Assembly (NCBI GenBank): GCA_028717245.1
Contig: JAQUOD010000004.1
Coordinates: 65,508 to 129,507 of the forward strand
Direction: 5' to 3'
Length of the DNA: 64,000 bases
From: Candidatus Omnitrophota bacterium
GTDB lineage: Bacteria > Omnitrophota > Gorgyraeia > Gygaellales > Profunditerraquicolaceae
Positions 6,010 through 52,490 of this stretch are shown here, in pieces. Position numbers and translations under genes: made by a program. The notes beneath the pieces were generated by a model. That model was not told the DNA's origin. It did no database searches and saw only the letters and a list, made by a program, of their open reading frames with translations. Position 1 is the first letter of the stretch, and every line of letters begins with the position of its first letter.

Positions 6010-6044
6010 AACATTAAAACATTAAAACATTTAAACTTTCAAAC
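6010..6044. repeat. AAAACATT / AAACTTTC word repeat overlapping the cooF stop, upstream of the FAD oxidoreductase gene.
   Basis: aacattaaaacattaaaacatttaaactttcaaac. Confidence 0.75.
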
Positions 6045-6480
6045 TAAGTTCCTCTTGCCAGATAATCGCACCCGTAGGGCAGGCCTTAACACAACTCGGT
6101 TCATCTTTATCCTTACATTTATCACAGCGTAAGGGTAACTTTGTCTTTATATTCGGCCTGATAGCGCCGTAGGGACAAACCATCACGCACATCCAGCATC
6201 CTACGCAGCGCTTATCGTCATGCAGGACCATGCCTTTTTCTTTATCATAAACCAAGGCCGCAGCCATACAGGCATCTACGCAGACGGGGTCTTTACAATG
6301 CCGACAGGAAACCGGATAGTTCTTATCTTTTGAGGCTAAAACTTTTTTCCTGGGCAGGGATAAAACTTCTTCTTTAAACGCCTTAAATAAATCGCCCGTA
6401 AGAGAATGCGCCACGGCACAGGCGATCTCGCAGGATTTACAACCCAGGCATTTTTTTACATCATAATATAACTGCTTCAT
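6031..6480 (-). CDS. cooF: 4Fe-4S ferredoxin, CooF-like CODH electron-transfer subunit.
   Basis: Multiple CxxCxxCxxxCP motifs (CLGCKSCEIAC, CVGCWMCVMVCP). Immediately downstream of cooS. Confidence 0.75.
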   Translation of the reverse strand: MKQLYYDVKKCLGCKSCEIACAVAHSLTGDLFKAFKEEVLSLPRKKVLASKDKNYPVSCRHCKDPVCVDACMAAALVYDKEKGMVLHDDKRCVGCWMCVMVCPYGAIRPNIKTKLPLRCDKCKDKDEPSCVKACPTGAIIWQEELSLKV

Positions 6481-6488
6481 CTCGTCTC

Positions 6489-6563
6489 AGGGACGGTTCT
6501 CAAGATAATCTTAAAGTGTCCCCTGAAAAGGGACACTTTTGCTTTGAGTTGAGAACCGTCCCT
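6489..6563. promoter_or_regulatory. Nested perfect hairpins in the cooS-cooF intergenic region: 15-bp outer stem AGGGACGGTTCTCAA / TTGAGAACCGTCCCT enclosing a 9-bp inner stem AAGTGTCCC / GGGACACTT.
   Basis: Read directly. No U-tract follows on the transcribed strand. Confidence 0.55.
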
Positions 6564-6571
6564 ACTATTTT

Positions 6572-8482
6572 TCATTCATACATTACCGGCTTGAGCTTCA
6601 AATCTTTTCTTTTCTTATCAATATGTTCAATCATCAGATGTGCGGCTTTTATGGGATCAACCTCAAAAGCAAATTTTCCTCCCACTAAGTCCTGGAGGTC
6701 TCCGGTAATAAAATCGGTTACTTTCTGACTTCCTAGAACCGGTTGAGGCGTGCCAAAAACAGTGAATACGCCGCTGGCCACAAAATAAAAACCAATAGAA
6801 ACTGCCTTCTCGCTCATCCATTCTGGCGCTGCTCCTGCTACCGGCAGGTCGCTAATCTTCTCACCCAAGCCACCTTCTTCAATAATCTTGGAGCAGGCAA
6901 TTAAAATCCTGGAATTATCTACACAACTTCCTACATGCAAGACCGGAGGAATCCCTACTGCCTCGCAAATCTCCTGTAACCCCTTGCCGGCAAATTCAAA
7001 TGCTGATTCCGGCTTCAATAATCCTATCTTTGCGTTAGCAATGGCTGAACAACCAGTCACTACCACCAAGACATTATTCTTGAGCAGCTCCTTTACCATT
7101 GCCGTATGGCCAAGGTCATGGGGCACATTAGGATTATTGCAGCCAACCACTCCGGCTATCCCGCGCAATCTCCCTGAAATTATACCCTCATTTACCGGTT
7201 TCCAGGTAGAACGATATTCTCCGCCAATAATATAAGGAATATCTTCAGCGGTAAATCCGGCAATTAAATCCATTGATTCCTCAGGGATGACCACCCTGGC
7301 TTTATTCCTATTCTCAAAATTATCAACTGCCTTCTTGAGGATTAATTTACAGATTTCAAATGCCTTCTCTTGTTTAAATTCAATATGGGTAACACCGGGA
7401 AATTTAGCCTTGGGGCTTGTGGTGATCAATTGCGTATGGAAACAATTGGCAACCTCGGCTAACGCCGGCATAATGCATTGAACGTCAACCATCATCAATT
7501 CCACCGCTCCGGTAAGGATGGCTAATTCCTGTTGAAGAAAATTTCCTGCCACATGGATCCCGTGGCGCATAAGAATCTCATTAGCCGTACAACACATACC
7601 CACAATATTAATGCCTTCTGCGCCCTTTGCCTTGGCCAATTTGATTAGTTCCGGATCCTGGCCTGCCTGGACAATCACATCAGAAAGAGTAGGTTCATGC
7701 CCGTGGACAACTACATTGACGTAATTTTCTTTTAAAACCCCCAAATTAACTTTTGATTTAATGGGAATGGGCGCTCCGAACAGAATATCGCTTAATTCCG
7801 TGGCAATCATTGAGCCGCCCCAGCCATCAGATAGGGCGGTACGCAAGCCATGCATGATAATATTCTTATAATCGTTATCTACCCCCATATGCGTGCGGTG
7901 CATACATTCAACAATTTCGCGGTCAATACCCCGCGGCACAACCCCTAATTTTCTCCAGGCATCCTGGGTCTTTTTGGGGGCGCGCGAAATAAAGCGAAGC
8001 TCATCTTCTTGCTGACCAAATTCATGTAATGCCTTTGCTGCCACCTCACCTGCAATCTCTAAATCTTTTTTACCCTCAACCTTTATTCCATAAAGAAAAG
8101 CTACTTCTTTTAACTTGACCGGATTACTTATTTTATAATCATGGGCCTTGCCCTCTGAGGCCAAAAGTAAAGCCTCGGCAATGTCTCTTCCGTGATCAGA
8201 GTGGGCAGCCGCGCCTGAAGCAATCATTCTTAAAAGATTGCGGGCAACAATAGTATCGGCGCTTGCGCCGCAGACTCCCTTTTTCGCGCCTTCTCCGAAT
8301 GGATCAATCCGACAGGGGCCCATGTTACATATACGGCAACAGATACCTAATTGGCCAAATCCGCACTGCGGCTGCATAATCTCATAACGGTCCCAAACAA
8401 TCTCAATGTTATCAAGCCCTGCCTGCTCAATCATCTTTTGGCTGGCAGGATCTACTGATTTTGTTTTTATGTTATTATTCAC
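6572..8482 (-). CDS. cooS: Anaerobic carbon-monoxide dehydrogenase catalytic subunit.
   Basis: 636 aa. N-terminus CGFGQLGICCRICNMGPCRI (B/D-cluster Cys) and Ni-CODH-like conservation throughout. Confidence 0.9.
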   Translation of the reverse strand: MNNNIKTKSVDPASQKMIEQAGLDNIEIVWDRYEIMQPQCGFGQLGICCRICNMGPCRIDPFGEGAKKGVCGASADTIVARNLLRMIASGAAAHSDHGRDIAEALLLASEGKAHDYKISNPVKLKEVAFLYGIKVEGKKDLEIAGEVAAKALHEFGQQEDELRFISRAPKKTQDAWRKLGVVPRGIDREIVECMHRTHMGVDNDYKNIIMHGLRTALSDGWGGSMIATELSDILFGAPIPIKSKVNLGVLKENYVNVVVHGHEPTLSDVIVQAGQDPELIKLAKAKGAEGINIVGMCCTANEILMRHGIHVAGNFLQQELAILTGAVELMMVDVQCIMPALAEVANCFHTQLITTSPKAKFPGVTHIEFKQEKAFEICKLILKKAVDNFENRNKARVVIPEESMDLIAGFTAEDIPYIIGGEYRSTWKPVNEGIISGRLRGIAGVVGCNNPNVPHDLGHTAMVKELLKNNVLVVVTGCSAIANAKIGLLKPESAFEFAGKGLQEICEAVGIPPVLHVGSCVDNSRILIACSKIIEEGGLGEKISDLPVAGAAPEWMSEKAVSIGFYFVASGVFTVFGTPQPVLGSQKVTDFITGDLQDLVGGKFAFEVDPIKAAHLMIEHIDKKRKDLKLKPVMYE

Positions 8483-8499
8483 CTTAATCCTCCCGATAT

Positions 8500-9375
8500 C
8501 TATAGTCCTGCTGCATCCAATACCAAAGGGACCTTCTTATCCCAGCCAATGGGCATGATATGAATTCCATGACACATTGGTTTTAATTCTTTTATTAATC
8601 GTACGGCTATCTCTATAGACCTCTTCGCTCTCTCTTCTTTAGGCGCTGAGCTCATTTCATCTATCAGGTTCTGCGGGACAGTAACCCCGGCAACATTCTC
8701 ATTCATATACTTTGCCATACCCGCGGATTTCAATAAAACGATACCTGCCAATATGGTTGTCTTAAGGTGCTTTATTTTATTTAAAAAATTCTCAAAGACT
8801 TTTATATCATAAACTGCTTGGGTCTGAAAGAATTCTGCGCCAGCTTCTATCTTCTTTTCCATCTTCAGGATCTGCGGCTCTATGGGGTCTGCCCCGGGGT
8901 TAACCACAGCACCGACGCAAAATTTAGGCGGCTGGCCTTCCAATTTATTCCCTTTCATATCAGAACCTTCCTGAAGTTTCTTCACTACGCCTAATAATTG
9001 CACGGAATCCAAATCAAATACGGGTTTTGCTTCCGGGTGGTCGCCTAAAGTAGTATGGTCGCCGGTTAAAATAAGTAAATTTTCTATGCCCAAGGCGGCG
9101 GCGGATAAGATATCCGACTGAAGCGCAAGGCGATTCCTGTCGCGGCAGGTCACCTGGAATATCGGCTCAAACCCCTTCTGTTTTAATAAACTAGAAACGG
9201 CTAAAGACCCCAGGCGCATCACCGAGCTTTGTAAGTCCGTGACGTTTATAGCATCTACGCGGCCGCGGATGAGTTCAGCGTCCTCCAGAAGAATCTTGGT
9301 CTCAATCCCCTTCGGCGGCCCAATCTCCGAAGTCACCAAAAACTTCCCAGACTCTAATTTTTCTTTGAAAGTCAT
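8500..9375 (-). CDS. metF: Methylenetetrahydrofolate reductase (MetF-like).
   Basis: 291-aa MTHFR-like TIM-barrel sequence in a folate/WL cluster between folD and cooS. Confidence 0.7.
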   Translation of the reverse strand: MTFKEKLESGKFLVTSEIGPPKGIETKILLEDAELIRGRVDAINVTDLQSSVMRLGSLAVSSLLKQKGFEPIFQVTCRDRNRLALQSDILSAAALGIENLLILTGDHTTLGDHPEAKPVFDLDSVQLLGVVKKLQEGSDMKGNKLEGQPPKFCVGAVVNPGADPIEPQILKMEKKIEAGAEFFQTQAVYDIKVFENFLNKIKHLKTTILAGIVLLKSAGMAKYMNENVAGVTVPQNLIDEMSSAPKEERAKRSIEIAVRLIKELKPMCHGIHIMPIGWDKKVPLVLDAAGL

Positions 9376-9390
9376 TACTATCTTCTCTTT

Positions 9391-9490
9391 AGCGGGTGAC
9401 GCGGGAGATGCCTCGAGCCAAATTTGGCGAGAGGCTCATCACGCGGTGAGGACCCGCTACCTCACCAGCGAAAAAAAGACAGATTCATTT
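9391..9490. repeat. Short copy of the GC-rich 'X' element family. It has the outer arms of the 20826-21020 copy with the middle missing, and ends in a GACAGATTCATTT motif.
   Basis: AGCGGGTGACG...ATGCCTCG...GGACCCGCTACCTCACCAGCGAAAAAAAGACAGATTCATTT matches both ends of the 20826-21020 copy. Confidence 0.5.
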
Positions 9491-9502
9491 ACTATGTTAT
9501 CA

Positions 9503-9553
9503 GGGACAGTCCCCTTGGTTTGCTTCGGATTAGCTTTCTACGGGGACAGTCCC
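9503..9553. repeat. REP-like pair of GGGACAGTCCC(C) 5-1-5 palindromes spaced about 27 nt apart, starting 5 nt beyond the folD stop codon.
   Basis: AGGGACAGTCCCCTTGGTTT...TACGGGGACAGTCCCT. The same unit recurs at 18357-18407 and 21103-21154. Confidence 0.6.
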
Positions 9554-9558
9554 TGTTA

Positions 9559-10404
9559 CTATTCTTGTTGTAACTTTGCTGCTTCGACGACGTTACGCAT
9601 CAGCATAGTAACGGTCAGGGGGCCGACACCGCCGGGAACCGGGGTAATATAGGATGCGCGTTTTTCTGCAGCCTCAAATTCCACATCGCCGACGATTTTA
9701 TCAGCCACGCGGTTTATCCCCACATCAATCACCACTGCGCCCTCTTTAATCCATTCGCCTTTAATGAGCCCGGCCCTGCCTACTGCCACAATCAAAACTT
9801 CGGCCTTATTGACGTGCTCCTCTAATTTTTCTGCCTTTGACGTGCCGATATGGCAGACCGTAACCGTAGCAAATTTATCCAATAATAAAAGTGAAAGCGG
9901 CTTACCCACGATTTCGCTGTGGCCTACGACTACCACTTCCTTACCGTATAAATCCAACCCTGTTTCTTTCAATAGCTCCATTACCGCTGCCGGGGTACAA
10001 GGCAATATCTTCGCCTGGCCAAAAACAATCTTACCAATATTCGCCGGGTGCATTCCCTCCACATCTTTATCCGGTGAAATATACTGGCTGATTTTTTTAT
10101 AATCTATTTGGGGCGGAAGCGGCATCTGGATAATAATACCGTTAATAGACTTATCTATATTTAATTTCCAGATAAATTCAGTAAGGGAAACCTCAGTAGT
10201 ATCCGCGCTTAACTTATGGAATTGATATTCTATGCCTAAGCCCTCTGCGTTTTTTTTCTGAGACTTTGCGTAGGCCTCGGCACCGGCGTTATCCCCTACC
10301 TGGATACTGGCTAAAACCGGCTTATTCTTTAAAGAAACTATCTCTTGTTTGATCCCTTCTTTTATCTTCTCTGCTAACGGCTTACCCTCTAATAATTTTG
10401 CCAA
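9559..10404 (-). CDS. folD: Bifunctional methylene-THF dehydrogenase / methenyl-THF cyclohydrolase.
   Basis: MAKLLEGKPLAEKIKEGIKQEI... with FolD-family length and conservation. Confidence 0.9.
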   Translation of the reverse strand: MAKLLEGKPLAEKIKEGIKQEIVSLKNKPVLASIQVGDNAGAEAYAKSQKKNAEGLGIEYQFHKLSADTTEVSLTEFIWKLNIDKSINGIIIQMPLPPQIDYKKISQYISPDKDVEGMHPANIGKIVFGQAKILPCTPAAVMELLKETGLDLYGKEVVVVGHSEIVGKPLSLLLLDKFATVTVCHIGTSKAEKLEEHVNKAEVLIVAVGRAGLIKGEWIKEGAVVIDVGINRVADKIVGDVEFEAAEKRASYITPVPGGVGPLTVTMLMRNVVEAAKLQQE

Positions 10405-12636: not shown

Positions 12637-12644
12637 AACTATAC

Positions 12645-13621: not shown

Positions 13622-13632
13622 TTTATTTCTAG

Positions 13633-14004: not shown

Positions 14005-14739
14005 TTAATTATCTTTTAATAAATCCGGCCTTGATTTTTTGGTAATTTTTAAGGCTTGTTTTTTTCTCCACTGCGCTATTTTTTTATGATTACCTGATAA
14101 AAGGATTGCCGGGACCTTCATGCCTTGATAATTGGCAGGCCTGGTATACTGTGGATACTCCAATAGATTACCCGTAAATGACTCAAAATTCAAGGAATTT
14201 TTATCCCCCAATACACCCGGGATAAGGCGCACTAAGGCATCCACTAAAACCATAGCCGGCAATTCCCCGCCGGTCAAGACATAGTCGCCGATAGAGATCT
14301 CTTCATCCACAAGAGAAAGCCGCACCCTTTCGTCTATGCCTTCATAATGCCCGCAGATTAAAATGAGGTGCTTACATTTGGCCAACTTTTGCGCTACTCT
14401 TTGATTTAATTTCTCACCCCGCGGGCATAATAAAATAACTTTTGTTTTTTTCGTATCGCGTATCGCGTATCGCGTATCGCGTATCTTCGATGCACGACGA
14501 AAAATATCATTCACTGCCCGGAATATGGGCTCTGGGTTTATCACCATGCCTGAGCCGCCGCCAAAAGGCCGGTCATCGACTTTCCTGTGTTTATCCAAAG
14601 TATAATCCCGCAGGTTATGGATGTAAATCTTGACCTTACCTTTATTTTGCGCCCGCTTGAGAATAGATTCATTCAGCACGGGTTCGAACATCTTGGGGAA
14701 TATGGTGAGGATATCTATACGCATCGTATAAGGTATCAA
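14005..14739 (-). CDS. trmD: tRNA (guanine37-N1)-methyltransferase. Carries an in-frame heptamer tandem repeat insertion.
   Basis: [17 protein letters not shown]..., typical TrmD. The (CGTATCG)x4.5 array at 14452-14485 encodes [12 protein letters not shown] in a variable loop. Confidence 0.9.
14452..14485. repeat. Heptamer tandem array (CGTATCG)n inside the trmD coding sequence, in frame.
   Basis: cgtatcgcgtatcgcgtatcgcgtatcgcgtatc, read directly. Confidence 0.85.
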
Positions 14740-14803
14740 AGTATCAAGGTGTCAAGGTATCAAAGTTTTTTCTTTGACACAATGACACCTGACACTATGA
14801 CAC

Positions 14804-14805: not shown

Positions 14806-15973
<1,168 letters not shown>

Positions 15974-15980
<7 letters not shown>

Positions 15981-16969
15981 ATCAGCATGGCATCGCCATA
16001 ACTATAAAACCTGTATTTTTTATCAATAGCTTCCTGATATGCCTTTTTAATCAGTCCCTCGCCGGCAAAGGCGCAGGCTAACATAAACAGGGTAGTACGG
16101 GGAAGATGAAAATTGGTAATTAAAGCATCAGCCGCCTTAAATTTATACCCCGGATAGATAAATAAATCCGTCTCTCCTGCCTCATTACCAGAGGCATAAC
16201 TCTCCAGGGCGCGGCAGGCAGTTGTCCCAACAGCAATTATACGCGCCTTTCTTAAGCGCGCCTGCCTTATGCTCTGGCGCGCCTCTTCACTCACCTGAAA
16301 AAACTCTTTATCCATTTTATGAACGCTAATGTCCTCTGTTTTCACTGGCTTAAACGTAGAATAGTTTATATGCAAGGTAATATAAGCGATATCCACGCCA
16401 ATAGCTTTAATTTTATTTATTAATTCTTGAGTAAAATGTAACCCCGCCGTCGGAGAAGCAATAGAGCCTTCTTCTTTGGCATATACGGTCTGGTAATAAA
16501 TACTATCTGAATCTTCCGGTGGCCTTTTAATATAAGGCGGTAGCGGCATCCTGCCTAAATTATAAACCGTATCTATATCCGCGTCAGAAAAAGTAACTTC
16601 ATTTTTGGCGCTGATTTGCGCGGAAATTTTTCCTCCGTTAAAAACTATTTTTTCTTTAAGCCGCAATCGATGAGGCCTGATGAGTGCCTCAAAGGTTAAG
16701 CCGGATTTTTGCCTTAAGAGTAATAGCTCTACTCTCCCGCCGGTAGAGCGCGAGCCGATTAAACGGCTGGGTGTAACCTTAGTGTTATTTAATACCAAGA
16801 GGTCACCCGCCTGTAAATAATCTCTTATATCCTTAAAAATGCGGTGTTCGATAGTGGCTCGTTTACGGTCTAAAACTAAAAGCCGGGCCGTATCCCTCTC
16901 TTCTAAGGGGTATTGCGCGATTAATTCTTTGGGTAAGGGGTAATCGAAATCCGATAATTGCATCATCAC
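15974..16969 (-). CDS. queA: S-adenosylmethionine:tRNA ribosyltransferase-isomerase.
   Basis: FDYPLPKELIAQYPLEERDTARLLVL, typical QueA. Confidence 0.9.
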
Positions 16970-18150
16970 TTGAGGTTATCCACGGAAGAAATCTGCGCAC
17001 CGGGATAATAATATTCCAGTATCTTCTTATAGTCATATCCTTCTTTGGCCATAAAATAAGCGCCCCACTGGCAAAGGCCCACGCCATGGCCCCAACCCAG
17101 GCCTTCAAAGACTATATCATCATCCAATACTTTCACCTGGAAATTCGTGCTTCTGATAATATCCGGGCCTGCGATATTCCTGAAATCCTTGGCGGAAATC
17201 TTTATTTCTTTTTTATCACTTATTATTTTAAGGTCAGTAATACGGCTGGATTTATCATAACCCAAAATCAGGATATCCTCGATATCCCCAAGTTTGTATC
17301 CAGATTTTAGTAACGTATCTTTTAAATCTTTCCGCGCCAGAACGCTGTGCCAGCTAAAATGAGGAGACTCCCGGCAAAAATTGCAAGGTAGGCCCTTAAG
17401 TGGCCCTATATTTATATTCCAAAGTAGAGAGGCATCTTCTGTATGCCCGCCGCAGGTAGCGTGATAAAAAGCAGGAAGGATCTTATCCTTATAAGTAAGG
17501 ACCATGCCAGCCGTTTCATCCACTGCCTTATTGATACGGTAACGCTCAGCGCCACGACCGCCGTACACCTGAGAATAGACGTCGCTGGTTAAATCAAAAT
17601 CATTTTTGCTATTTTCCTGCATTTTATAGAGGGCAAAGGTACGGAATACTATGACCTCGGCCTTAAGCGATTCTATTGGCCGGTAATGCGAAGTCTCCCG
17701 CACCGAAATCCCTTTTATATAGTCCTCCAGGTCAATATAATTAATGGCCGTAAGCTTAGCGTAATCATCTTTGATAAACTGCATATTGCCTCTGAACATC
17801 CGGCCGTTAATCATAACGGCATCGGCTTTATCTGCCTTAATAAAAAGTTTATTTGTCCTGGATTTTATATCGCCCAATGAAATGCCTGTGCTATAAGATG
17901 TGAGGGTAGTGTTTAAGTTTTTGCCGCGGTTTAAAACTTTGTTCTCTGCCGGATCCAGGACTTCATAAGGCCCCTTTATCTCTAGCCTCAAAGAAGCAGC
18001 ATTTTGTAAAATGGCTACCCGGATATACCTGGCCGTTCCGGCAAAAGAACTAACGACTAGCGACAAACGACTAACGACTAAAATAATTATCAATATAAAT
18101 AATAATTTTAATTTGTTCAATGTGCTTTTTATCGGCGAGGCCATAGCCAA
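16966..18150 (-). CDS. SpoIID/LytB-domain protein (amidase enhancer-like) with N-terminal TM segment.
   Basis: C-terminal GWGHGVGLCQWGAYFMAKEGYDYKKILEYYYPG matches SpoIID/LytB domains. Confidence 0.7.
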   Translation of the reverse strand: MAMASPIKSTLNKLKLLFILIIILVVSRLSLVVSSFAGTARYIRVAILQNAASLRLEIKGPYEVLDPAENKVLNRGKNLNTTLTSYSTGISLGDIKSRTNKLFIKADKADAVMINGRMFRGNMQFIKDDYAKLTAINYIDLEDYIKGISVRETSHYRPIESLKAEVIVFRTFALYKMQENSKNDFDLTSDVYSQVYGGRGAERYRINKAVDETAGMVLTYKDKILPAFYHATCGGHTEDASLLWNINIGPLKGLPCNFCRESPHFSWHSVLARKDLKDTLLKSGYKLGDIEDILILGYDKSSRITDLKIISDKKEIKISAKDFRNIAGPDIIRSTNFQVKVLDDDIVFEGLGWGHGVGLCQWGAYFMAKEGYDYKKILEYYYPGAQISSVDNLK

Positions 18151-19894: not shown

Positions 19895-20068
19895 TTTACG
19901 GGTCCTGTCTTGGCTTGTTTTCTCGCAGGGACGCTCGTTTTGCCCAGCGTGCAAAACTTCGCTCGACTTTCGGCCTCGCTCTCACCGATAATTAATAGCG
20001 GGTGAACCGTGCCCGCTCGGCCTGCAAACGCCCTGCTCGAAACCAAGCCAATCCATCCGTAAAATACA
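19895..20068. mobile_element. GC-rich X element, MITE-like with imperfect TIRs TTTTACGG...CCGTAAAA. It is about 96% identical to 53500-53665 over roughly 145 nt.
   Basis: Direct comparison of the two loci. A terminal fragment recurs at 19005-19030. Confidence 0.6.
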
Positions 20069-33892: not shown

Positions 33893-33960
33893 TTACTTTG
33901 TGTCAAAGTATCAATGTGTCAGAGTGTCAAAGAAAAAACTTTGATACCTTGACACTTTGA
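33893..33960. repeat. Junction palindrome (GTGTCAAAG / GTATCAAT)n-A6-(CTTTGATAC)n between the GH57 gene and uppS.
   Basis: gtgtcaaagtatcaatgtgtcagagtgtcaaag aaaaaa ctttgataccttgacactttgatact. Confidence 0.75.
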
Positions 33961-33964
33961 TACT

Positions 33965-37681: not shown

Positions 37682-39040
<1,359 letters not shown>

Positions 39041-40290: not shown

Positions 40291-42057
40291 TTATTTTTTA
40301 CTTTTACCAATAAGCTTCTGGAAATCTTCTTTTTTAGGCACTGTCTTAGAGCCGAATACCTCCTGGTTATCCAAAAGATAAGTCGGCCCGAACATAATCC
40401 CTAATTCCTGATTCAGGCGGATATTTTCTTTTAGGAGCGTTTTACCTTCCGGCCCTTGAGCGCAACTCTTTATTTTCTGCGTATCCGCGCTGTTCTCCAG
40501 GCAATCCTGCCACCAGGAGCTGCTAGGATTCTTAGAACGGCAACTGATATAATCCCAAAACCCTTGAGGGTAATATTTTTGCACGCATACGCTACGCAAG
40601 GCCTCCTCAACTTCAGGGGCTCCTTTGGAGGCATCAAAATTATCTTTCTGCTCCACCACCAGAAAATGTATTGCCGGGCTAAAATCTTTTACTACCGCTA
40701 ATAGCTGGGGGGCATCTTTATCATACAAACTTAAAAAGAAGTCTAATTTACCTTTTAACTTTTCCCTCTTTAAAAAATAGGAGACGCCGCCGAAGTGGGG
40801 CTTGAGCAGATAAAAATCGCTTTTCATTTCCAGATTTTCTCTCAAATTATCAAAACCTTTTTCCTGTCTTACCTCTTTACCCAAAAGATAAACCGGCAAA
40901 GAATTAATTCCAAAATCTTTAATCAGTTTGGCAGCTTTGGCGCCGGGATAATACAAATAAGAAACAGACAGCCCCGGGAATAAGGCCTTTAAATTTTTAA
41001 TTACCCCCTCAGTATCGCATACCCTGCATTGCTTAGGTATAATCACCGAAAGGGGAATCTTTGATACCTCGGAGAACTGACAGTAAGACTTAAGCGTCCC
41101 GGCGGCCTGGCATATGCCTATGCGGGAAGCCTGCCTGCAATTATTATCCGAAAAACAATGGGGCAGGATAGAAAGTATCTGCGGGTCATCGCTTATCTTG
41201 TCTGAAAGGCGCAGCTCTTCTACTTTATGGCCCGTAATTTTGTTTTCCTTAAGCGTAAGCGTTAATTTTCCCAGCCTGCGGCCCTGCCAGGAAGGCCTCA
41301 GGAGTAAAGTGCGGCCTATTTTAGTGGAAGGCTCTTCTTTGGCGCGGTTATGGCCCACAATAAGTATATCTATGCCGATAGTATCCTTGAGCAAATTTAA
41401 ATCTTCGGCCTCGCCCTGGTGGCTTAAGAGTATAATAATATCCGCGTTATTTTTCTGCAAATCCGCTACTGCCTCTTTCACCGCCGCTTTGGGCTCCGTA
41501 AAATCTAACCCTCCTGCCTTCTGCCTGGCAGTAAGGCCGGTTACCCCGATTATCCCGACTTTTACGCCGGCGAACTCTTTGATCAGATAAGGCCTGAATA
41601 GTGTTTCTTTTGCTCCGGAAGTAGTAGAGGTAGAGATATTACAGGAGACTAAAGGTAACTTGTCCCTGCCGGCGCTTTCTTCTAAAAACTCCCGGCCGAA
41701 ATTAAACTCATCATCCCCCACCGCTAAGGCATCGTATTTCATCATCTCCATGCTTTTTAGGTTCACCAATGCCCGCTGCATATCCAGCGGCACATTCTGG
41801 GTATATTCATCCATGAGGCCGCCGGCAATAAATCCGCCTGAATCCAAAAGCAGGGTATTAGGGTTATCTTTTCTTAACTTTTTAATCAATGCGGCCCTGC
41901 GGGCAATGCCCCCGTCAGGCTCTTTAGGACAGTTGCAGGGATAAAGCATAGAATGCGTCTCGCCGGTATAAAGGAGAGTGATTTCTTTGGCATAAGCAAA
42001 ATTAAATATATTGGCCAACAACCAATAACCAACAACCAATAACTCCAATCTCTTCAT
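40291..42057 (-). CDS. Secreted metallophosphoesterase / 5'-nucleotidase-family protein with a C-terminal Cys-rich thioredoxin-like region.
   Basis: Signal peptide. ITLLYTGETHSML resembles the 5'-nucleotidase N-terminal metallophosphatase motif. Confidence 0.45.
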   Translation of the reverse strand: MKRLELLVVGYWLLANIFNFAYAKEITLLYTGETHSMLYPCNCPKEPDGGIARRAALIKKLRKDNPNTLLLDSGGFIAGGLMDEYTQNVPLDMQRALVNLKSMEMMKYDALAVGDDEFNFGREFLEESAGRDKLPLVSCNISTSTTSGAKETLFRPYLIKEFAGVKVGIIGVTGLTARQKAGGLDFTEPKAAVKEAVADLQKNNADIIILLSHQGEAEDLNLLKDTIGIDILIVGHNRAKEEPSTKIGRTLLLRPSWQGRRLGKLTLTLKENKITGHKVEELRLSDKISDDPQILSILPHCFSDNNCRQASRIGICQAAGTLKSYCQFSEVSKIPLSVIIPKQCRVCDTEGVIKNLKALFPGLSVSYLYYPGAKAAKLIKDFGINSLPVYLLGKEVRQEKGFDNLRENLEMKSDFYLLKPHFGGVSYFLKREKLKGKLDFFLSLYDKDAPQLLAVVKDFSPAIHFLVVEQKDNFDASKGAPEVEEALRSVCVQKYYPQGFWDYISCRSKNPSSSWWQDCLENSADTQKIKSCAQGPEGKTLLKENIRLNQELGIMFGPTYLLDNQEVFGSKTVPKKEDFQKLIGKSKK

Positions 42058-44810: not shown

Positions 44811-44916
44811 AGAGTTCCTTTCGTTATTGAGTTACTTGAGTTATTGAGTTACTTGAGTTTGCTAGACCAACTGCAAAACTCAAAAGACCCTATAAACTCA
44901 ACAAACTCTAAAAACT
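44811..44916. repeat. Long imperfect palindrome of (TATTGAGTT / TACTTGAGTT) words and their complements at the clpP-aminotransferase junction.
   Basis: cgttattgagttacttgagttattgagttacttgagttt...aaaactcaaaagaccctataaactcaacaaactc. Confidence 0.8.
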
Positions 44917-45525
44917 TTATTTTTTCTTGGTTACGATCACTTCATCTACCAAACCGTAGGCCTTTGCTTCTTCGGCAGACATAAAGTAATCGCGGTCAGT
45001 ATCCTTCTGGATTTTTTCCAACGGCTGCTTTGTATTCACGGATAAAATCTCATTGAGCTGGTCGCGTAATTTCAAGATTTCCTTGGCATGCCGGGAGATA
45101 TCCTCTGCTACTCCCTGAATCCCGCCCCAGGGTTGATGAATCATAATCCTTGAATTCGGCAGGGCAAAACGTTTGCCCTTAGTGCCGGCGCATAAGAGAA
45201 TTGCCCCCATACTTGTGGCCTGGCCTACGCAATAAGTGGCGACATCGGGTTTGACAAACTGTATAGTATCATATATTGCTAACCCCGCGGTTACCGAACC
45301 TCCGGGTGAATTAATATAGACGTTGATGTCCTTATTAGAATCCTCCATCTGTAAAAAGAGCATCTGGGCAATGATAAGATTAGCTACGTTGTCATCAATG
45401 CCCGTGCCGATAAAAATAATGCGGTCTTTAAGTAAACGCGAATAGATATCATAGGCCCGCTCGTAGCCTTTGGGCGATTGTTCAATCACCATCGGTACCA
45501 ATGTCTGCATTTTAACGCTCATCAA
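44917..45525 (-). CDS. clpP: ATP-dependent Clp protease proteolytic subunit.
   Basis: [11 protein letters not shown] and HQPWGG catalytic motifs. Confidence 0.9.
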
Positions 45526-46403
45526 TTACCTCCTTCTTGCCAATTCGCTTCTTTCAATAAAAATTCTATCACATGAGCTGGCATATGGTCATCCTGCGCG
45601 ATATTTTCCTTTTTGGCGATAGCGGATAAAACCAGATAAACCTTTACCTGCCTCTTTGCTTGCGGTTCTAGCTCCTGCCGCATAACCTTATCTTGCCCGT
45701 CTATCTTATCGCGGGGGATACCTTTTAATGCCAGGTCTAATTTTGTCTGCCGGACTAAATCATCTAACTGCCGCGTAACCATGGAAGAGGGTAACTTAAA
45801 ATCCAGGCCTTTGGTTATAGCTTCTACAATTTCATTCTCTATCTTCTGCCTCTGCAGGCTTTCTTTCTGAAGATAAATTTGCCTCTCAAACGCCTTTTCT
45901 AATTCCAGAAGGTTAGGATAGCCTAATCCCTTGGCGAAATTATCGTCAATAACCTCTACTTTCCTTGATTCTTTTAAGGAATCAAGGCTGCGCTTTAGCT
46001 CATCAGGGGTAACTTCTATTTTTTTATAATTTACCCTGATGCCTTTATAATTTTTTGCGCTGACCTGTGGGCTTATCTCCACGTGGGCCTTAAAAGAAAG
46101 ATTATCCCTCTCTAACTTCACATCAAATATATTCGGCAATTCCACTATATCCAGCCCTTCCTTTTCTATGGCCTGATTGTATAGCTCGGGAATCAGTTCT
46201 TTGAGCACCTGCTCATGGGCATGGGAAGAATAATGTTTTTCTAAGATATCGCGGGGGGCATTACCGGGCCGAAAACCCGGGACCTTTGCTTCCTTGGCGA
46301 TCTTCTTAAAGACATCCTCAAATTTATTCTTGACGATATCGCCGCTTATCTCAACGCTGACTTCTCTTTTGTTGCCGTCTAATTTCTTAACTTCAATTTT
46401 CAT
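45522..46403 (-). CDS. tig: Trigger factor (short form, 293 aa; apparently lacks the PPIase domain).
   Basis: N-terminal ribosome-binding [16 protein letters not shown] signature. Confidence 0.75.
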
Positions 46404-46464
46404 TTATCCCTCAACATTCAAACATTCAAAACATTTTAACATTCAAACATTCAAACATTAGCTG
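46404..46464. repeat. ACATTCAAAC-family repeat at the lptB-tig junction.
   Basis: caacattcaaacattcaaaacattttaacattcaaacattcaaacatta. Confidence 0.8.
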
Positions 46465-47187: not shown

Positions 47188-48115
47188 TCATACCCTCCGC
47201 GGAATAAATAACTAATCTCGGTTTGCCTGAAAGAGTAATCTTCCTGTCTAACGCGGTGTAAGTCGCTTCGTCGCTGTAGGAAATGTTTTCGCCCTGGCTG
47301 ATCTTTACGTTGCCGCGCGCCACAATCTTGTCTATCTTGCTGCCCATAGCGGCCATGCCTGCCTGGCCTGCGGAGATATCTTTGCCAGCGTCTGTGCCGC
47401 CGAAATAAACATCCATCTTATCGCTCTCAATCAGGGCATCCTGGGTATCTACCTTTACATTATTGCTGAAGGTAGCGATATTCTTCCCGTAATCTATCTC
47501 CAGGGGGCCATCGCAGGTAATGACAATCTTTTTTTGCCCGGCCGGCTCCTGGGCCTTAGCGTCAACGCTGGGATTGATATTTACCGTAACATCTTTTTCC
47601 AGGCTCACCTTTTTTAAGTCCGGTTCGCCGCTTGCGCCGCTGGCAGTGGTCACCATATTGCCCCTTTCTATGCTCACCATATCCTTGGTACTCACCAGGC
47701 GGTTTTTCCTGTCCCAATCCAGAGAATCCGTAGTCAGTTTTGCGCCGGTAGAAGTAGTGATGATGACATTCTCTTCCAGATGCACCTTGCCGTCTGCCTT
47801 ATCAAAATCGCCCTTGTCAGCGGTAAGCCTGATATCCTCTTTTTCGCCGTAAAGGTTACCGACTACGCTCTTGAGTTTTACTATGTTGTCAAATATATCC
47901 GCGGATTTTCCCGAAAGGTCCCAGCTGCGCTTGCCTTTTTCGCCAAAGCTGGCCAGGGAAAACTCATTAATCTGCTGGTCAGAGCCCGGAGCATTTTCTT
48001 CCTGGGCAACTAAGCTGTAAGCTGTAAGCTGTAAGCTGTAAGTAAAGATAAAAAAGAAAAATAAAATAATCTTAAGAATACCTGATTTATGACACCTGAC
48101 TTGTGACTCTGCCAT
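47168..48115 (-). CDS. lptA: LptA/OstA-family LPS transport protein. The (GTAAGCT)n repeat encodes part of the signal-peptide region.
   Basis: N-terminal hydrophobic segment, OstA-like beta-rich body. Position matches kdsC-lptA-lptB synteny. Confidence 0.55.
   Translation of the reverse strand: MAESQVRCHKSGILKIILFFFFIFTYSLQLTAYSLVAQEENAPGSDQQINEFSLASFGEKGKRSWDLSGKSADIFDNIVKLKSVVGNLYGEKEDIRLTADKGDFDKADGKVHLEENVIITTSTGAKLTTDSLDWDRKNRLVSTKDMVSIERGNMVTTASGASGEPDLKKVSLEKDVTVNINPSVDAKAQEPAGQKKIVITCDGPLEIDYGKNIATFSNNVKVDTQDALIESDKMDVYFGGTDAGKDISAGQAGMAAMGSKIDKIVARGNVKISQGENISYSDEATYTALDRKITLSGKPRLVIYSAEGMNASLGN
47992..48022. repeat. (AAGCTGT)x4.5 heptamer array inside the lptA 5' coding region, encoding QLTAYSL.
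   Basis: aagctgtaagctgtaagctgtaagctgtaag. Confidence 0.85.
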
Positions 48116-48124
48116 TTTTAATTT

Positions 48125-48658
48125 CTACAAATCATAAAGGCCTACCATCTCTTCCCACTTACCCTGCGCCTTCAGGATGAGTTCTGCTATTTCCCGTACT
48201 GCGCCGCGGCCGCCTTGCTTGAGGGTAATATAAGCAGCTGCCTGTTTTATTTCCGGCGCGGCATTAAATACAGCGATAGGAAAACCCACCTTTTTCATCA
48301 GGCCTAAATCTACCAGGTCATCTCCGGCAAAACATATTTCGCTAATATCTACCTTATATTTCTTTAGGATTTTATCCAGGGCTTTTGTCTTGGGAGAAAT
48401 ATTTTCAAAGACCGCCTCAACGCGCATATCGCGGGCGCGCGGGGCGATGGCACGCGAACCCTTGGCAGTAATCAGGATAGTCGGGATACCTGATTTTTTC
48501 AATAAATACACCCCCAGGCCGTCATGGCAATCAAAGAATTTCATATCCCGGCCGTGCGAATCGTAGATAATCCTGCCGTCAGTCAACACCCCGTCTACGT
48601 CCAGCATCAATAACCTGACCCTTTTAGCCTTCTCGATTAATTCTTCTTTAATATCCAT
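48125..48658 (-). CDS. kdsC: KDO 8-phosphate phosphatase (HAD).
   Basis: LLMLDVDGVLTDGRIIY HAD motif I. Confidence 0.8.
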   Translation of the reverse strand: MDIKEELIEKAKRVRLLMLDVDGVLTDGRIIYDSHGRDMKFFDCHDGLGVYLLKKSGIPTILITAKGSRAIAPRARDMRVEAVFENISPKTKALDKILKKYKVDISEICFAGDDLVDLGLMKKVGFPIAVFNAAPEIKQAAAYITLKQGGRGAVREIAELILKAQGKWEEMVGLYDL

Positions 48659-48826
48659 ACTCTATAATTGTATAATTGCACCAGGTGCCGAGCCAATCTC
48701 GTACCAGGTGCGAAACTAATCTTGTACCTGTCCCTTCTTTCTCTTGCTAACGGTACACACGCCGCCTCAGGGGACAGGTACAATCTCAAATTTGCACCAG
48801 GTGCCCGATTGGATTTGCACCTGGTG
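48659..48826. promoter_or_regulatory. Complex palindromic intergenic region. It has four GCACC-W-GGTGC-type 5-1-5 palindromes and a central GTACCTGTCCC...GGGACAGGTAC 11-bp inverted repeat.
   Basis: tgcaccaggtgc...gtaccaggtgcg...gtacctgtccc(36 nt)gggacaggtac...gcaccaggtgcc...gcacctggtgc. Confidence 0.45.
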
Positions 48827-49789
48827 CTAAACTAAGCCGGCTTTTAAAAGGTCCTGTATATCCAATAAACCTACTGGACGTTTATTTTTATCTACGACCG
48901 GCAGCTCATCTATCTTTTTCTCCTGTAATATGCGGCTGGCCTCTATTGCCAGCATCTGCGGGGAAACCGCAATCGGATTTTTAGTCATTGCATCCTTCAC
49001 CTGGCGTTTAGCTAAACTCAGGTCTTTTTCCAGATGGCGGCGTAAGTCTCCGTCAGTAAAGATACCGGTGAGCTGCTTATTTTTATTTATCACCGAGGCG
49101 CTGCCTGCGCGTGCCCTAGTGATCCTGAATAGAACCTCTGAAATTTTCATCTCTTCCCTGACTATGGGATTGGCATCGCCCTTACGCATAATATCCTCTA
49201 CTTTTAAGAGCAGCTTTCTGCCCAATAAGCCCCCCGGGTGATAAAAGGCAAAATCTTTTTCTTTAAAACCTTTTAAATCCAGAAGACAGACTGCCAGGGC
49301 ATCGGCCATGGCCAGCATCGCCGTCGTAGAAGTTGTAGGCGCAAGGCCTAAGGGACAGGCCTCTTTTTTTACAGCGGTATTTAAGACTGCATCCGCATAA
49401 CGGCCAAGCAGGGATTTGGTATTGCCGGTAATGGCGATTATCTGCGTGCCTATCTTCTTTAATAAAGGCAGTAATTTCTTAATCTCCTCTGTCTCTCCGC
49501 TGTTAGATAAAATAATCACTACATCTTCTTCGGCAACCCGGCCCAGGTCCCCGTGTATGGCTTCCGCAGAATGCAGAAATAAACTCGGGGTCCCGGTCGA
49601 AGAGAGGGTAGCGGATAATTTTTGGCCGATAATACCGGCCTTACCCATTCCGGTAACTACCACCCTGCCTTTGGAGCGTAAAATAAATTGGACTGCCTTT
49701 TTAAAATCCGTATTAATATTCTTTTTTAAATCGCTTACTGCCCCGGCCTCGATATCTAAAACCTGCCTGGCGCGTTTGATAATATTCAT
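48827..49789 (-). CDS. kdsD: Arabinose-5-phosphate isomerase (SIS + CBS).
   Basis: SIS domain GMGKAGIIGQK, C-terminal tandem CBS. Confidence 0.85.
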   Translation of the reverse strand: MNIIKRARQVLDIEAGAVSDLKKNINTDFKKAVQFILRSKGRVVVTGMGKAGIIGQKLSATLSSTGTPSLFLHSAEAIHGDLGRVAEEDVVIILSNSGETEEIKKLLPLLKKIGTQIIAITGNTKSLLGRYADAVLNTAVKKEACPLGLAPTTSTTAMLAMADALAVCLLDLKGFKEKDFAFYHPGGLLGRKLLLKVEDIMRKGDANPIVREEMKISEVLFRITRARAGSASVINKNKQLTGIFTDGDLRRHLEKDLSLAKRQVKDAMTKNPIAVSPQMLAIEASRILQEKKIDELPVVDKNKRPVGLLDIQDLLKAGLV

Positions 49790-49837
49790 AGGGCTTCCTC
49801 TTAATCCGCCGTAGGCGGATAAGTTCAGCCATATAAC

Positions 49838-50674
49838 TTATGTCGTACTTCGTACTCCATAAGTTATGGCTTCACTTATTTTCTTGATTTGCCGTAAGAG
49901 TTTTTCTAAATCCTTTAGACTAATCATATTCGGCCCGTCGCAGGGAGCATTATCCGGCTTCGGGTGTACTTCTAAAAACAAACCGTCACAGCCAAAACCA
50001 ACCGCAGCGCGCGAAAGCCCGGCCACAAATTCCCGTTGTCCGCCGGAGCATCTACCCTTACCCCCGGGAAGCTGCACGCTATGCGTGGCATCATAAATAA
50101 CCGGATAACCCATCTGGCGTATAATACTTAGGCTCCTGAAATCCGAGACTAAATTATTATAACCAAAACACACGCCCCGCTCGGTAATCAGGATATTTTT
50201 ATTCCCCGTAGATTCTATTTTTTTGATGATGGGCAGAATATCCCAGGGCGCCAGGAATTGGCCTTTCTTGATATTTACGGCTTTGCCTGTCCTGGCTGTT
50301 GCCACCACAATATCCGTCTGGCGGCATAAGAATGCCGGGATCTGTATTATATCCAAAACCTTGGCTGCTTCAACGATGTCCTTGCGACAATGGATATCGC
50401 TTAATACGGGGATGCGTAATTTTTGCTTCACTTTATTCAGGGTATCCAGGCCCTTCTTTATTCCCGGGCCGCGGTAAGATTCTATTGACAAACGGTTAGC
50501 TTTATCAAAACTGGATTTAAAGATAAAAGGTATGCTTAATTTTTCAGTAATATCCTTTATCCTCTTGGCAGTATCCAGGCAGAGTGTTTCTGACTCAATT
50601 ACGCAAGGCCCGGCAATCAAAACTAACGGGTTTTTATCACCTATGCGGATATTTTTTACGTTAATCTGGCGCAT
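49838..50674 (-). CDS. kdsA: 3-deoxy-8-phosphooctulonate synthase.
   Basis: VLIAGPCVIESE and KASFDKANR motifs. Confidence 0.9.
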   Translation of the reverse strand: MRQINVKNIRIGDKNPLVLIAGPCVIESETLCLDTAKRIKDITEKLSIPFIFKSSFDKANRLSIESYRGPGIKKGLDTLNKVKQKLRIPVLSDIHCRKDIVEAAKVLDIIQIPAFLCRQTDIVVATARTGKAVNIKKGQFLAPWDILPIIKKIESTGNKNILITERGVCFGYNNLVSDFRSLSIIRQMGYPVIYDATHSVQLPGGKGRCSGGQREFVAGLSRAAVGFGCDGLFLEVHPKPDNAPCDGPNMISLKDLEKLLRQIKKISEAITYGVRSTT

Positions 50675-51414
50675 TATATTTTTTCCCTCTGCAGGTATTC
50701 TCTGACTTTTTCTAAATCCTGCGGCGTATCTACGCCGATAGTCTCGTATTTTGTCTCAATGACTTTGATGCGAAAGCCCTCCTCCAGGACCCGCAATTGT
50801 TCCAGCCGCTCTATTTTTTCCAGGTTAGAGACCGGCAGATTTTTATAGGTAAAAAGAAAATCTTTGGTGTAGCCATATAAACCGATGTGCTTGTAATATA
50901 CGGGCGAAGCCGCTTCGGAACCTTGGGCAAGATAGGGAATGACTGACCTCGAAAAGTATAGGGCAAAATTATTTTTGTCCACCACCACCTTGACCACATG
51001 GGGGTCGTTCAACTCCTGGGGGTTTTCTATTTTTTTCATAATGGTAGCCATGGAAATTTTACGGTCATCGAGGAGCGACTGCGCCAGGGTATCAATCATC
51101 GTAGGATGTATCAAAGGCTCATCGCCCTGAATATTGATTACTATCTTCACCTCTATGGGGTTTATCACCTCGATGATCCTGTCCGTTCCCGATACATGGC
51201 CTTTTGCCGTAAAGGCGACCTTAGCGCCGAATTCTCTGGCTGCATCGGCAACGCGTTCGTCGTCGCAGGCAATGATTAAATCCTCTAAAAGCAGGGATTG
51301 TTTCGCCCGTTCCCAGACGTGCTGGATCATAGGTTTTCCCGATATATCCGCCAGGACCTTGCCTTCAAACCTGGTAGAAGAATACCTCGCCGGGATTATA
51401 CCGATAATATCCAT
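50674..51414 (-). CDS. kdsB: 3-deoxy-manno-octulosonate cytidylyltransferase.
   Basis: IIPARYSSTRFEGK N-terminus. Confidence 0.9.
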   Translation of the reverse strand: MDIIGIIPARYSSTRFEGKVLADISGKPMIQHVWERAKQSLLLEDLIIACDDERVADAAREFGAKVAFTAKGHVSGTDRIIEVINPIEVKIVINIQGDEPLIHPTMIDTLAQSLLDDRKISMATIMKKIENPQELNDPHVVKVVVDKNNFALYFSRSVIPYLAQGSEAASPVYYKHIGLYGYTKDFLFTYKNLPVSNLEKIERLEQLRVLEEGFRIKVIETKYETIGVDTPQDLEKVREYLQREKI

Positions 51415-52437
51415 CTATCTTATCCTCTCTGATAGCTCTTTTCTGGAGGCAACCGCCGTGCCTAATTTGCCCACGACAATACCGGCGGCAAAATTGGCGA
51501 TATGCGCTGCTTCAAGCTTGCTTGCGCCGCAAGCAAGCGCCACGGTAAATGTTGCTATTACGGTATCGCCTGCTCCTGAAACATCAAAAACCTCCTGAGC
51601 CACCGTCGGAATATGTTGATTTTTCCCTTTTTCAAAAAGCCACATCCCGTTCTCGCCAAGCGTAATCAAGAGGCTTTCTAACTCTAAATGCCCCAGGATT
51701 GCTTCGCCGGCCTTAATAATATCATTATGGGTGAGCAATTCTTCTTTATAAATTTTAAACTTATTGTGGGCGTCCTTCATTTTTAGGTATCTAACGGCAT
51801 TCTCGGTTTCTTTACGGTTAGGGGTAATACATGTAGCTTTAAAATAACAATCGAAATTATCCTCCTTGGGATCAATAGTTATTATTTTTTCTAACCTATT
51901 GGCTTCTTTGATAATAGTTTCAATCAAATTTCTATCAAGGAGGCCCTTCCCATAGTCTTCAACTATGACTGCATCAAAATCCTTTAAATTACCTGATATG
52001 TAACTACGCAGCTTATTGTCGGTTTCTCTTTTGATATTATGCACGTGCTCCCAATCAACCCTGACTACCTGCTGATGCCCGGCGATAATCCTGGTTTTAA
52101 GGGTCGTTTCTCTACCGTTTTCTAACATTACCCCTGACGCATCAATCCTGCGGTCCTTAAGTTCATTTAAAAGCCTTTTTGAAATCTCAGGGCTCCTGTC
52201 GCCTATAACTCCGCATAAGCTAACCTTACCCCCCAGCGCGCAGATGTTGTTTGCAACATTAGCGGCTCCGCCGGGTGAGTATTTTCTTTCTCTTGCCCAT
52301 ACAACCGGCACAGGTGCTTCCGGAGAAACCCTGTCGACGCCGCCATAGATATATTGGTCAAGAATCAAATCCCCTACTACTAAAATATTGGCCTTAGAAA
52401 ATTTAGAAATTATATTTTTTAAACTGCCTAATTTCAT
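51415..52437 (-). CDS. hldA: D-glycero-beta-D-manno-heptose 7-phosphate kinase (RfaE domain I / HldA-like, PfkB family).
   Basis: ILVVGDLILDQYIYGGVDRVSPEAPVPVV, with the PfkB GAGD motif near the C-terminus. Confidence 0.75.
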   Translation of the reverse strand: MKLGSLKNIISKFSKANILVVGDLILDQYIYGGVDRVSPEAPVPVVWARERKYSPGGAANVANNICALGGKVSLCGVIGDRSPEISKRLLNELKDRRIDASGVMLENGRETTLKTRIIAGHQQVVRVDWEHVHNIKRETDNKLRSYISGNLKDFDAVIVEDYGKGLLDRNLIETIIKEANRLEKIITIDPKEDNFDCYFKATCITPNRKETENAVRYLKMKDAHNKFKIYKEELLTHNDIIKAGEAILGHLELESLLITLGENGMWLFEKGKNQHIPTVAQEVFDVSGAGDTVIATFTVALACGASKLEAAHIANFAAGIVVGKLGTAVASRKELSERIR

Positions 52438-52490
52438 TTTTTACCCGCTAACATTTAAACTTTCAAACTTTCAAACATTTTAACAGACAC
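52438..52490. repeat. ACATTTAAAC / TTTCAAAC leader repeat at the DHS-like-hldA junction.
   Basis: ctaacatttaaactttcaaactttcaaacattttaac. Confidence 0.75.

Follow-up and report, generated by a model that had tools for sequence, protein, structure and literature searches.

AAWGTTNN octamer arrays in front of start codons of a Candidatus Omnitrophota bacterium: probably a young repeat family in operon junctions

In a 64,000-nucleotide stretch of the genome of a Candidatus Omnitrophota bacterium (contig JAQUOD010000004.1, positions 65,508 to 129,507; in the following called the window), arrays of an imperfect octamer, AAWGTTNN, are situated at the start codons of several genes, some of which have no Shine–Dalgarno (SD) sequence. 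The question raised by these arrays is whether they constitute a dedicated leader that takes the place of the SD sequence, as was proposed in the initial annotation of the window, or whether they reached these positions in another way. From the comparison with related loci we conclude that the five arrays probably belong to a single family of long simple sequence repeats (LSSR), young and specific to this lineage, in operon junctions that were once tight, and do not form a conserved SD-replacing leader.

The AAWGTTNN family was surveyed in the 64-kb window, and the comparison set consisted of related loci of about 820–828 kb. Four of the five array junctions were compared with their orthologs, namely lptB>tig, X>hldA, fer4>oxidoreductase, and queA>tgt. 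The relatives close to the window that have a named source are all Omnitrophota.

The five arrays and their start codons

The arrays consist of four to six imperfect 8-nt units each, which read AAWGTTNN on the transcribed minus strand and are found at five gene junctions. Using Tandem Repeats Finder (TRF), arrays of period 8 were detected at 6010–6044 (4.4 copies), 15940–15984 (5.6 copies), 29011–29062 (6.6 copies), 46413–46459 (5.8 copies), and 52450–52479 (3.8 copies), with the units of an array matching one another to 78–88%. Among the direct repeats of the window, this family ranks first (D1). The motif AATGTTNNAATGTT, allowing at most one mismatch, has 16 matches in the window, all of them on the minus strand and confined to the five array sites, whereas 100 dinucleotide-preserving shuffles of the window gave 0.59 ± 0.73 matches and none of the shuffles reached 16. 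No Rfam match at gathering score was obtained anywhere in the window, and a search of the window for tRNA and tmRNA genes found nothing.

The genes flanking the arrays were identified with NCBIfam. At two junctions the start codon belongs to the array, as the initial annotation had recognized. The queA>tgt array (15940..15984, minus strand, four to five units) occupies the entire spacer: the queA stop codon TGA (15974–15976) is part of the first unit, the tgt ATG (15949) lies inside the last unit, and an in-frame TGA directly precedes this ATG. The ispG>proS array (29009..29062, minus strand, six units, one of them short by a base) encodes the final approximately six codons of ispG, contains the ispG stop codon TAA (29040–29042), and overlaps the proS ATG (29011), whose A and T fill the two variable positions of the last unit. 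Neither of these two arrays is accompanied by an SD sequence.

At the remaining three junctions the ATG follows 9–22 nt past the array, and over all five junctions the array-to-ATG distance is not constant but varies from 0 to 22 nt. The fer4>oxidoreductase array (6010..6044, minus strand, four units) is situated within the CODH/ACS cluster between the genes for a 4Fe–4S protein (fer4) and an FAD/NAD oxidoreductase. It contains the fer4 stop codon TAA (6031–6033), and the sequence GGAGGT (approximately 6005–6000) is found between the array and the oxidoreductase ATG at 5988. The lptB>tig array (46413..46459, minus strand, six units, one with an extra base) begins 10 nt past the lptB stop codon in a 61-nt spacer; after it come GAGGGATAA and the tig ATG at 46403. 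The X>hldA array (52448..52484, minus strand, four units) lies in a 71-nt spacer between an unnamed gene (X) and the ATG (52437) of hldA (RfaE domain I); an SD sequence is missing here.

Mis-called start codons were considered and rejected. The Tgt start MFKLIHQDK agrees with 22 orthologs, the oxidoreductase start MKQY... with the related loci L001, L005, and L207, the Tig start MKxE with 70 relatives, and the N-terminus of HldA with 29 relatives, while ProS is aligned to family profiles from residue 1. Two of these proteins are short. ProS (27761–29011) has 416 amino acids, and its split NCBIfam alignment is consistent with the insertion (editing) domain having been lost; the trigger factor (45522–46403) has just 293 amino acids and the same length in all 80 relatives.

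Do the arrays replace the SD sequence? This part of the initial annotation stood for tgt, proS, and hldA, which lack an SD sequence, but not for tig and the oxidoreductase gene, which retain GAGGG 5 nt and GGAGGT about 12 nt before the ATG, respectively, in both cases downstream of the array. The textbook AAGGAGG described for rplS (start 13989) was found. Among the 59 genes of the window an SD sequence is present in 29 if at least 4 nt are demanded and in 16 if at least 5 nt are demanded, so that by the 4-mer rule 30 of the 59 genes lack it whether they have an array or not. Cataloguing the start contexts of the window showed that junctions with short-repeat arrays are poorer in SD sequences than the others (3 of 14 compared with 26 of 45; Fisher p = 0.03), but lack of an SD sequence is common anyway. 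With two of five array genes keeping their SD sequence, half of the genes being SD-less regardless, and the family being one of at least ten in the window (see below), a dedicated class of SD-independent leaders is not borne out.

The composition of the arrays is nevertheless peculiar. Their sense strand has no C in 230 nt (strand average 19.7%) and an A+T content of 75–83%, and no significant fold is predicted for the array leaders (z −1.3 to +0.7). The initiation regions of this genome have 65% A+T and 12% C overall; the arrays exaggerate this local A/T-rich and C-poor norm. Single-stranded A/U-rich RNA beside an SD-less start codon, as expected for SD-independent initiation or a ribosome standby site, is therefore present, and the proposed standby role would agree with it. 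Because the essential gene proS begins at an ATG abutting an SD-less, C-free repeat, this uncultured nanobacterial lineage must be able to initiate translation efficiently without an SD sequence on unstructured A/U-rich RNA.

The units could also act at the DNA level, as internal promoters or as binding sites for nucleoid or regulatory proteins. They contain the hexamers TTGAAT and TAAAAT/TTTAAT, and one weak sigma-70-like match (9/12) overlaps the tgt array. However, no promoter-like match lies on the transcribed strand of the oxidoreductase array, promoter-like matches overall are near shuffle level (50 compared with 38.6 ± 4.9 in shuffles), and a promoter and terminator consensus scan gave no convincing promoter within the arrays. 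Moreover, a period of 8 bp is out of helical phase, and the junctions that hold the arrays are operon-internal in all relatives. We regard a DNA-level element as highly improbable.

A further alternative is suggested by the start and stop triplets of the units. ATGs are present in all sense frames of the arrays and stop codons in two to three of them, in line with the initial annotation. Each unit could accordingly provide a stop codon together with an ATG (TGAATG, TAAATG, TAATG) and serve as a termination–reinitiation cassette, in which a ribosome ending the upstream open reading frame (ORF) in any frame would meet an adjacent ATG; the translational coupling of the ancestral overlaps (ATGA, TAAATG) would thereby be restored. 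In favour of this, the upstream stop codon lies inside the array at three of the five junctions (fer4, queA, and ispG), the TGA and ATG at tgt are in frame, and at the ancestral junctions the genes overlapped or abutted (see below). Most of the ATGs in the arrays are, however, in a frame other than that of the downstream gene and open mini-ORFs of 2–10 codons that would compete with the true start, which at tig, hldA, and the oxidoreductase gene is located beyond the array. Furthermore, by our enumeration, eight of the nine linker dinucleotides possible without C yield a stop codon automatically, so that no separate selection is needed; selection for a stop codon in every unit was for this reason rejected as separate evidence. 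Taken together, a dedicated coupling cassette appears decidedly unlikely.

Orthologous junctions and the probable origin of the family

The gene order queA–tgt–trmD–rplS–rnhB...FTHFS...MTHFR–CODH/ACS is kept in relatives. At the lptB>tig junction none of 70 relatives (63–74% Tig identity) has an AAWGTTNN array. Most of them have a spacer of 10–20 nt with GGAGG or AAGGA, the others unrelated hairpins or other arrays, and in the window the array separates the stop codon from the GAGGG that has been retained. Likewise, none of 29 relatives has the array at the X>hldA junction; in about 21 of the 29 the two genes overlap in ATGA, whereas the window has an insertion of about 75 nt that contains the array.

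At the fer4>oxidoreductase junction, L001, L005, and L207 have no octamer array. The genes overlap in L005, and in L001 and L207 other sequence followed by GGGAG is found. Finally, no octamer array is present between queA and tgt in L003, L005, L207, or any relative examined. The two genes abut in L003 (TAAATG), and L005 and L207 have other inserts. L001 and L002 carry a related 7-nt array, TTTAATG, which runs on into their own coding start (MFNV), ATGTTTAATGTA; judged by its sequence, this array looks like an independent local slippage event.

Conservation of the leader, which would be expected of a regulatory device, was thus not found at any of these four junctions. Only three isolated 14-mer matches to the family are present in the 828 kb of related loci, which is not above the chance level of 0.59 per 64 kb, and L207 has no match to the family motif. 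Orthologous conservation, an Rfam match, and structure are all missing for a conserved cis-regulatory leader.

Outside the phylum, at least 120 stretches with three copies of AATGTTNN were obtained, and those among the matches listed belong to Bacteroidota, Kiritimatiellia, Patescibacteria, Gammaproteobacteria, and others, with no Omnitrophota among them. These listed stretches are mostly perfect repeats, and a crude ORF test gave no preference for sense (34 in sense, 49 in antisense). Arrays of octamers with the AATGTT core therefore recur in other phyla, although the listed matches give no real distribution. Five contigs of Kiritimatiellia metagenome-assembled genomes (L007, L031, L058, L089, and L100) carry octamer arrays of GAATGTTN; in L007, L031, L058, and L100 a GGTTTAGR array directly follows each of them, a recurring composite in another lineage of the Planctomycetes–Verrucomicrobia–Chlamydiae (PVC) group.

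The queA/tgt junction gives an indication of how the family could have arisen. In L207 and L005 queA ends with ATTGTTTGA, the ancestral start of tgt is ATGTTTAAAT, and in L207 tgt begins with ATGTTTAAATTAAT without an array in between. It follows that the terminal units of the window's array are ancestral coding sequence. The abutted ancestral ends of queA and tgt, GTTTGAAT-GTTTAAAT, already amount to two units, and the window array has 24 nt more units between them. Together with the 7-nt array that L001 has formed at its own start, this points to local slippage, presumably during replication, as the birth of the family at this junction.

From there, ready-made arrays would have been copied into other operon-internal junctions, which in most relatives are stop/start overlaps or short SD-bearing spacers and in some relatives contain other inserted elements. 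The tgt and oxidoreductase arrays are identical at 32 of 35 positions by our reading, with differences only at variable positions of the unit, and the proS and hldA arrays are 87% identical over 38 nt and have the 5' edge CTGTTAAAATGTTTG in common. The native flanks of the copied-looking arrays are unlike the unit and unrelated to one another. The pairwise likeness of these array sequences suggests copying rather than a home-grown origin.

The arrays would be co-transcribed in polycistronic mRNAs. They may be tolerated there because they are free of C, rich in A+U (75–83%), unstructured, and furnished with stop codons and ATGs in their frames: the upstream ORFs would be cleanly terminated by the stop codons of the array, and the downstream start region would stay single-stranded, so that initiation or re-initiation could proceed without an SD sequence, presumably with the help of S1, a mode already used for about half of the genes here. 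Most plausibly, the arrays behave as permissive spacers, and their leader behaviour is a by-product and not a conserved regulatory device.

Slippage could, on the other hand, make the arrays contingency loci, in which a change in the number of 8-nt units alters how the downstream gene is spaced or expressed (phase variation). In favour of this, the repeats are tandem, lineages differ in unit number and even in period at queA/tgt (8 nt in the window, 7 nt in L001), and repeats in the 5' untranslated region have precedents such as Moraxella UspA2, as summarized in PMC4679880. However, the arrays are imperfect (78–88% matches), which suppresses slippage, and the genes concerned have housekeeping and not surface or virulence functions. 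In addition, gain or loss of a unit leaves both reading frames unchanged at tgt and proS. We regard phase variation as a most improbable explanation.

Several points weigh against a young repeat family spread by copying. In the 24 contiguous units the five core positions A1, A2, G4, T5, and T6 are invariant (0 changes at 120 sites), whereas positions 3, 7, and 8 show 27 departures at 72 sites (Fisher p = 8e-14), and the paralogous arrays, too, differ at variable positions only. Variation that is confined to the linkers is unlike neutral decay; either the arrays are very young and inherited their variation from a master copy, or the core is constrained, for example as a binding site. A sense orientation is common to the five arrays; as all of the approximately 59 long ORFs across the window (1–64000) are on the minus strand, the positions "in sense" and "upstream of a start codon" are automatic for any intergenic insert, and the test for same orientation of the arrays gave p = 0.06 at best. 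A mechanism of copying is not evident, and aligning the five loci yielded no common flank or target site beyond the arrays themselves. Finally, the placement of the family is known from the 64-kb window only.

The invariant core is what would be expected of the main competing explanation, a dedicated cis-regulatory leader. In this case the AAUGUU cores, as in (AAUGUUUG)n, would bind a small RNA (sRNA) or a multimeric or multi-domain RNA-binding protein, such as ribosomal protein S1, a protein of the cold-shock or KH type, or one following the logic of TRAP or CsrA, and the translation of tgt, proS, tig, hldA, and the oxidoreductase gene would be co-regulated. A repeated core with short variable spacers is the build of a multi-site protein-binding RNA, and it is seen across the 24 units and between paralogous arrays. 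The location of all five arrays in sense, 0–22 nt from a verified start codon, and the missing SD sequence of three of the five genes fit as well, and a closely analogous proposal has been made for the TAACTGA repeats of Beggiatoaceae (PMC4679880).

Against such a leader, the family is missing from all orthologous junctions examined and from the 828 kb of relatives, and the arrays vary in how many units they have, how far they lie from the ATG, and whether an SD sequence is present. No functional link connects the downstream genes, which are housekeeping genes, and the window has no antisense copy of AATGTTNNAATGTT that could act as an sRNA. At least ten other families, apparently also built of core plus linker, are found at equivalent junctions and would need as many factors. 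Furthermore, the intergenic arrays of the clade, the window excluded, are only weakly biased towards sense (29 compared with 20 having stop codons in three frames). We therefore consider a dedicated leader unlikely.

Other short-repeat arrays in the window and in the clade

The AAWGTTNN arrays are not the only short repeats of this region. TRF gave 41 merged rows in 64 kb, which include about 29 further arrays with 7–9-nt units belonging to at least ten families, for example GTGTCANN, GAGTTNNNN, TAAGCTG, CCAATTN, TAGTTAC, CGATACG, CAAACAC, TTATCGG, and CAAGTCA. By inspection and without quantification, the other imperfect families also seem to be built of core plus linker. The arrays take three forms: one-directional arrays in short spacers, to which AAWGTTNN belongs; arrays followed by an inverted array; and mostly perfect heptamer arrays inside ORFs.

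In the window and the related loci together (about 820 kb) there are 196 arrays, of which 84 are located in ORFs (69 of these are heptamers), 109 in spacers between co-directional genes, and 3 elsewhere. In the loci of the relatives alone, period 7 predominates with 101 arrays, periods 8 and 9 having 15 each. The arrays inside ORFs are open in all sense frames, while the intergenic ones are mostly closed in two to three frames.

The heptamer arrays inside ORFs of the window are situated at 14452–14485 (trmD), 15370–15435 (tgt), 18049–18081, 29232–29263, 42015–42043, 48011–48042, 54975–55007, 55574–55650, and 63150–63187. Their units, with a length that is not a multiple of three, encode loop inserts with a periodicity of seven residues in housekeeping proteins; all 84 in-ORF arrays of the clade sit in the orientation with an open reading frame. 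The loop insert of Tgt is encoded by TTATCGG (3.4 copies) and CAAACAC (5.7 copies), and it has a variant form in some relatives and is absent from others. A CGATACG array encodes the TrmD insert, which L003 and L005 lack and in place of which L001 has another heptamer insert.

Arrays followed by an inverted array are found at the junctions 14740–14803, 33893–33964, 38955–39037, 44812–44916, and 58968–59070. In one example four copies of GTGTCANN are followed by four copies of NNTGACAC. Long imperfect hairpins result, with RNA minimum free energies between −30 and −40 kcal/mol and z-scores between −3.3 and −9.3, and two of the families (D3 and D4) each occur at two separate junctions. Judging from sequence and predicted fold, these hairpins could have a terminator, processing, or stability role.

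Larger intergenic regions contain elements of other kinds. A GC-rich dispersed element of about 150 nt is present in two copies (19919–20066 and 53512–53660) that are 95–100% identical; it has no Rfam match and could be a miniature inverted-repeat transposable element or a small RNA gene. Paired palindromes of the GGGACAGTCCCC type, which resemble repetitive extragenic palindromic elements, are located at 6481–6571, 9498–9571, and 21099–21172 and, in L001, at 16881–16934, and relatives have palindromes of this type at further junctions.

In a separate assembly of the same organism from short reads (L206; Logan, SRR22315506), a 2.3-kb contig breaks exactly inside a CAGCTTA heptamer array, its positions 1–30 corresponding to 63150–63177 of the window. 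Arrays of this kind appear to fragment assemblies of this clade.

The multitude of families allows yet another, more general explanation. The AAUGUU core and the 5–6-nt cores of the other families could be recognition modules of a fast-evolving post-transcriptional code at operon junctions. Unstructured one-directional arrays would serve for SD-independent loading or re-initiation, the hairpins formed by an array and its inverted array would be processing or stability elements, and a dedicated spreading mechanism would seed the in-frame heptamer inserts in housekeeping proteins. That all these parts hold jointly seems to us quite unlikely.

Returning to our preferred explanation, a young family of simple sequence repeats, the arrays advise caution: a striking repeat lying on start codons resembles a purpose-built leader, while the comparison indicates recent insertion into junctions that were coupled or SD-driven. 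We consider the wider pattern to be the better lead, with its dozens of 7–9-nt families, hairpin pairs at junctions, and in-frame heptamers in Tgt, TrmD, and approximately one gene in ten. It has consequences for gene calling, for assembly, as contigs break at the arrays, and for the variation of protein length in Omnitrophota. Our search of the literature on Omnitrophota found nothing relevant on tandem or heptamer repeats and no description of this clade-wide pattern.

Comparison with known repeat systems

The short tandemly repeated repetitive (STRR) sequences of cyanobacteria are heptamer families, several of which occur per genome in intergenic regions; they are restricted to heterocystous cyanobacteria, and their sequences are unlike AAWGTTNN. 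With period 8 and a Candidatus Omnitrophota host, the arrays described here do not belong to the STRR sequences. The papers found on STRR employ these repeats for fingerprinting. S1-dependent A/U-rich initiation regions and ribosome standby sites form a class that is defined by function and does not consist of tandem repeats. By analogy, the arrays most plausibly work like such A/U-rich, unstructured initiation RNA.

Pervasive tandem repeats between and within genes have been described for the Borg and mini-Borg elements of Methanoperedens, and a regulatory role was suggested for the intergenic ones (10.1101/2023.08.02.551345). Unlike the repeats of the window, Borg repeats are perfect and longer, their in-gene units are divisible by three, and the elements are archaeal and extrachromosomal (10.1101/2023.08.02.551345).

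As cited in PMC4679880, Mrazek et al. (2007) described LSSR as repeats with units of 5–11 nt that are longer than expected by chance and have a sporadic phylogenetic distribution, with heptamers being most abundant and slippage the proposed origin. The arrays of the window consist of head-to-tail 8-nt units (3.8–6.6 copies by TRF) and are commoner than chance (16 compared with 0.59 matches), and heptamers are most abundant in this clade as well. Two differences from the LSSR survey, as far as it is summarized there, are the position-specific degeneracy of the octamer family and the heptamers that are common in frame in housekeeping ORFs, since in-gene units in the survey were predominantly multiples of three.

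The closest precedent is the TAACTGA heptamer, a direct repeat of marine Beggiatoaceae that also occurs in some Cyanobacteria and Bacteroidetes (MacGregor 2015; PMC4679880). Both are short tandem direct repeats just 5' of start codons, TAACTGA being present in 2–6 copies and mostly in intergenic regions. Forward-oriented TAACTGA closes all three frames with stop codons and in many cases overlaps the stop codon of the upstream gene, and AAWGTTNN is closed in two to three frames. SD sequences are rare in TAACTGA-containing spacers, the same trend as at the array junctions of the window. In the reverse orientation TAACTGA is found inside ORFs, which we count as a shared feature, and the downstream genes, essential ones included, show no functional pattern, as is the case here (PMC4679880). 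A translational role was proposed for TAACTGA, with S1, cold-shock proteins (Csp), and CsrA as candidates (PMC4679880).

The features that characterize this type of repeat, i.e., closing of frames (two to three), proximity to the start codon (0–22 nt), and usually a missing SD sequence (three of five), are all found in the AAWGTTNN arrays. Unlike TAACTGA, however, the unit has 8 nt and an unrelated sequence, and it is imperfect with an invariant core and a variable linker, whereas TAACTGA units are identical. TAACTGA is a single dominant heptamer and AAWGTTNN one of many co-existing families. The host belongs to a different phylum, Omnitrophota, and for AAWGTTNN absence from the orthologous junctions of relatives is shown. 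The AAWGTTNN arrays are thus best regarded as an analogue of the TAACTGA repeats and not as a member of that family.

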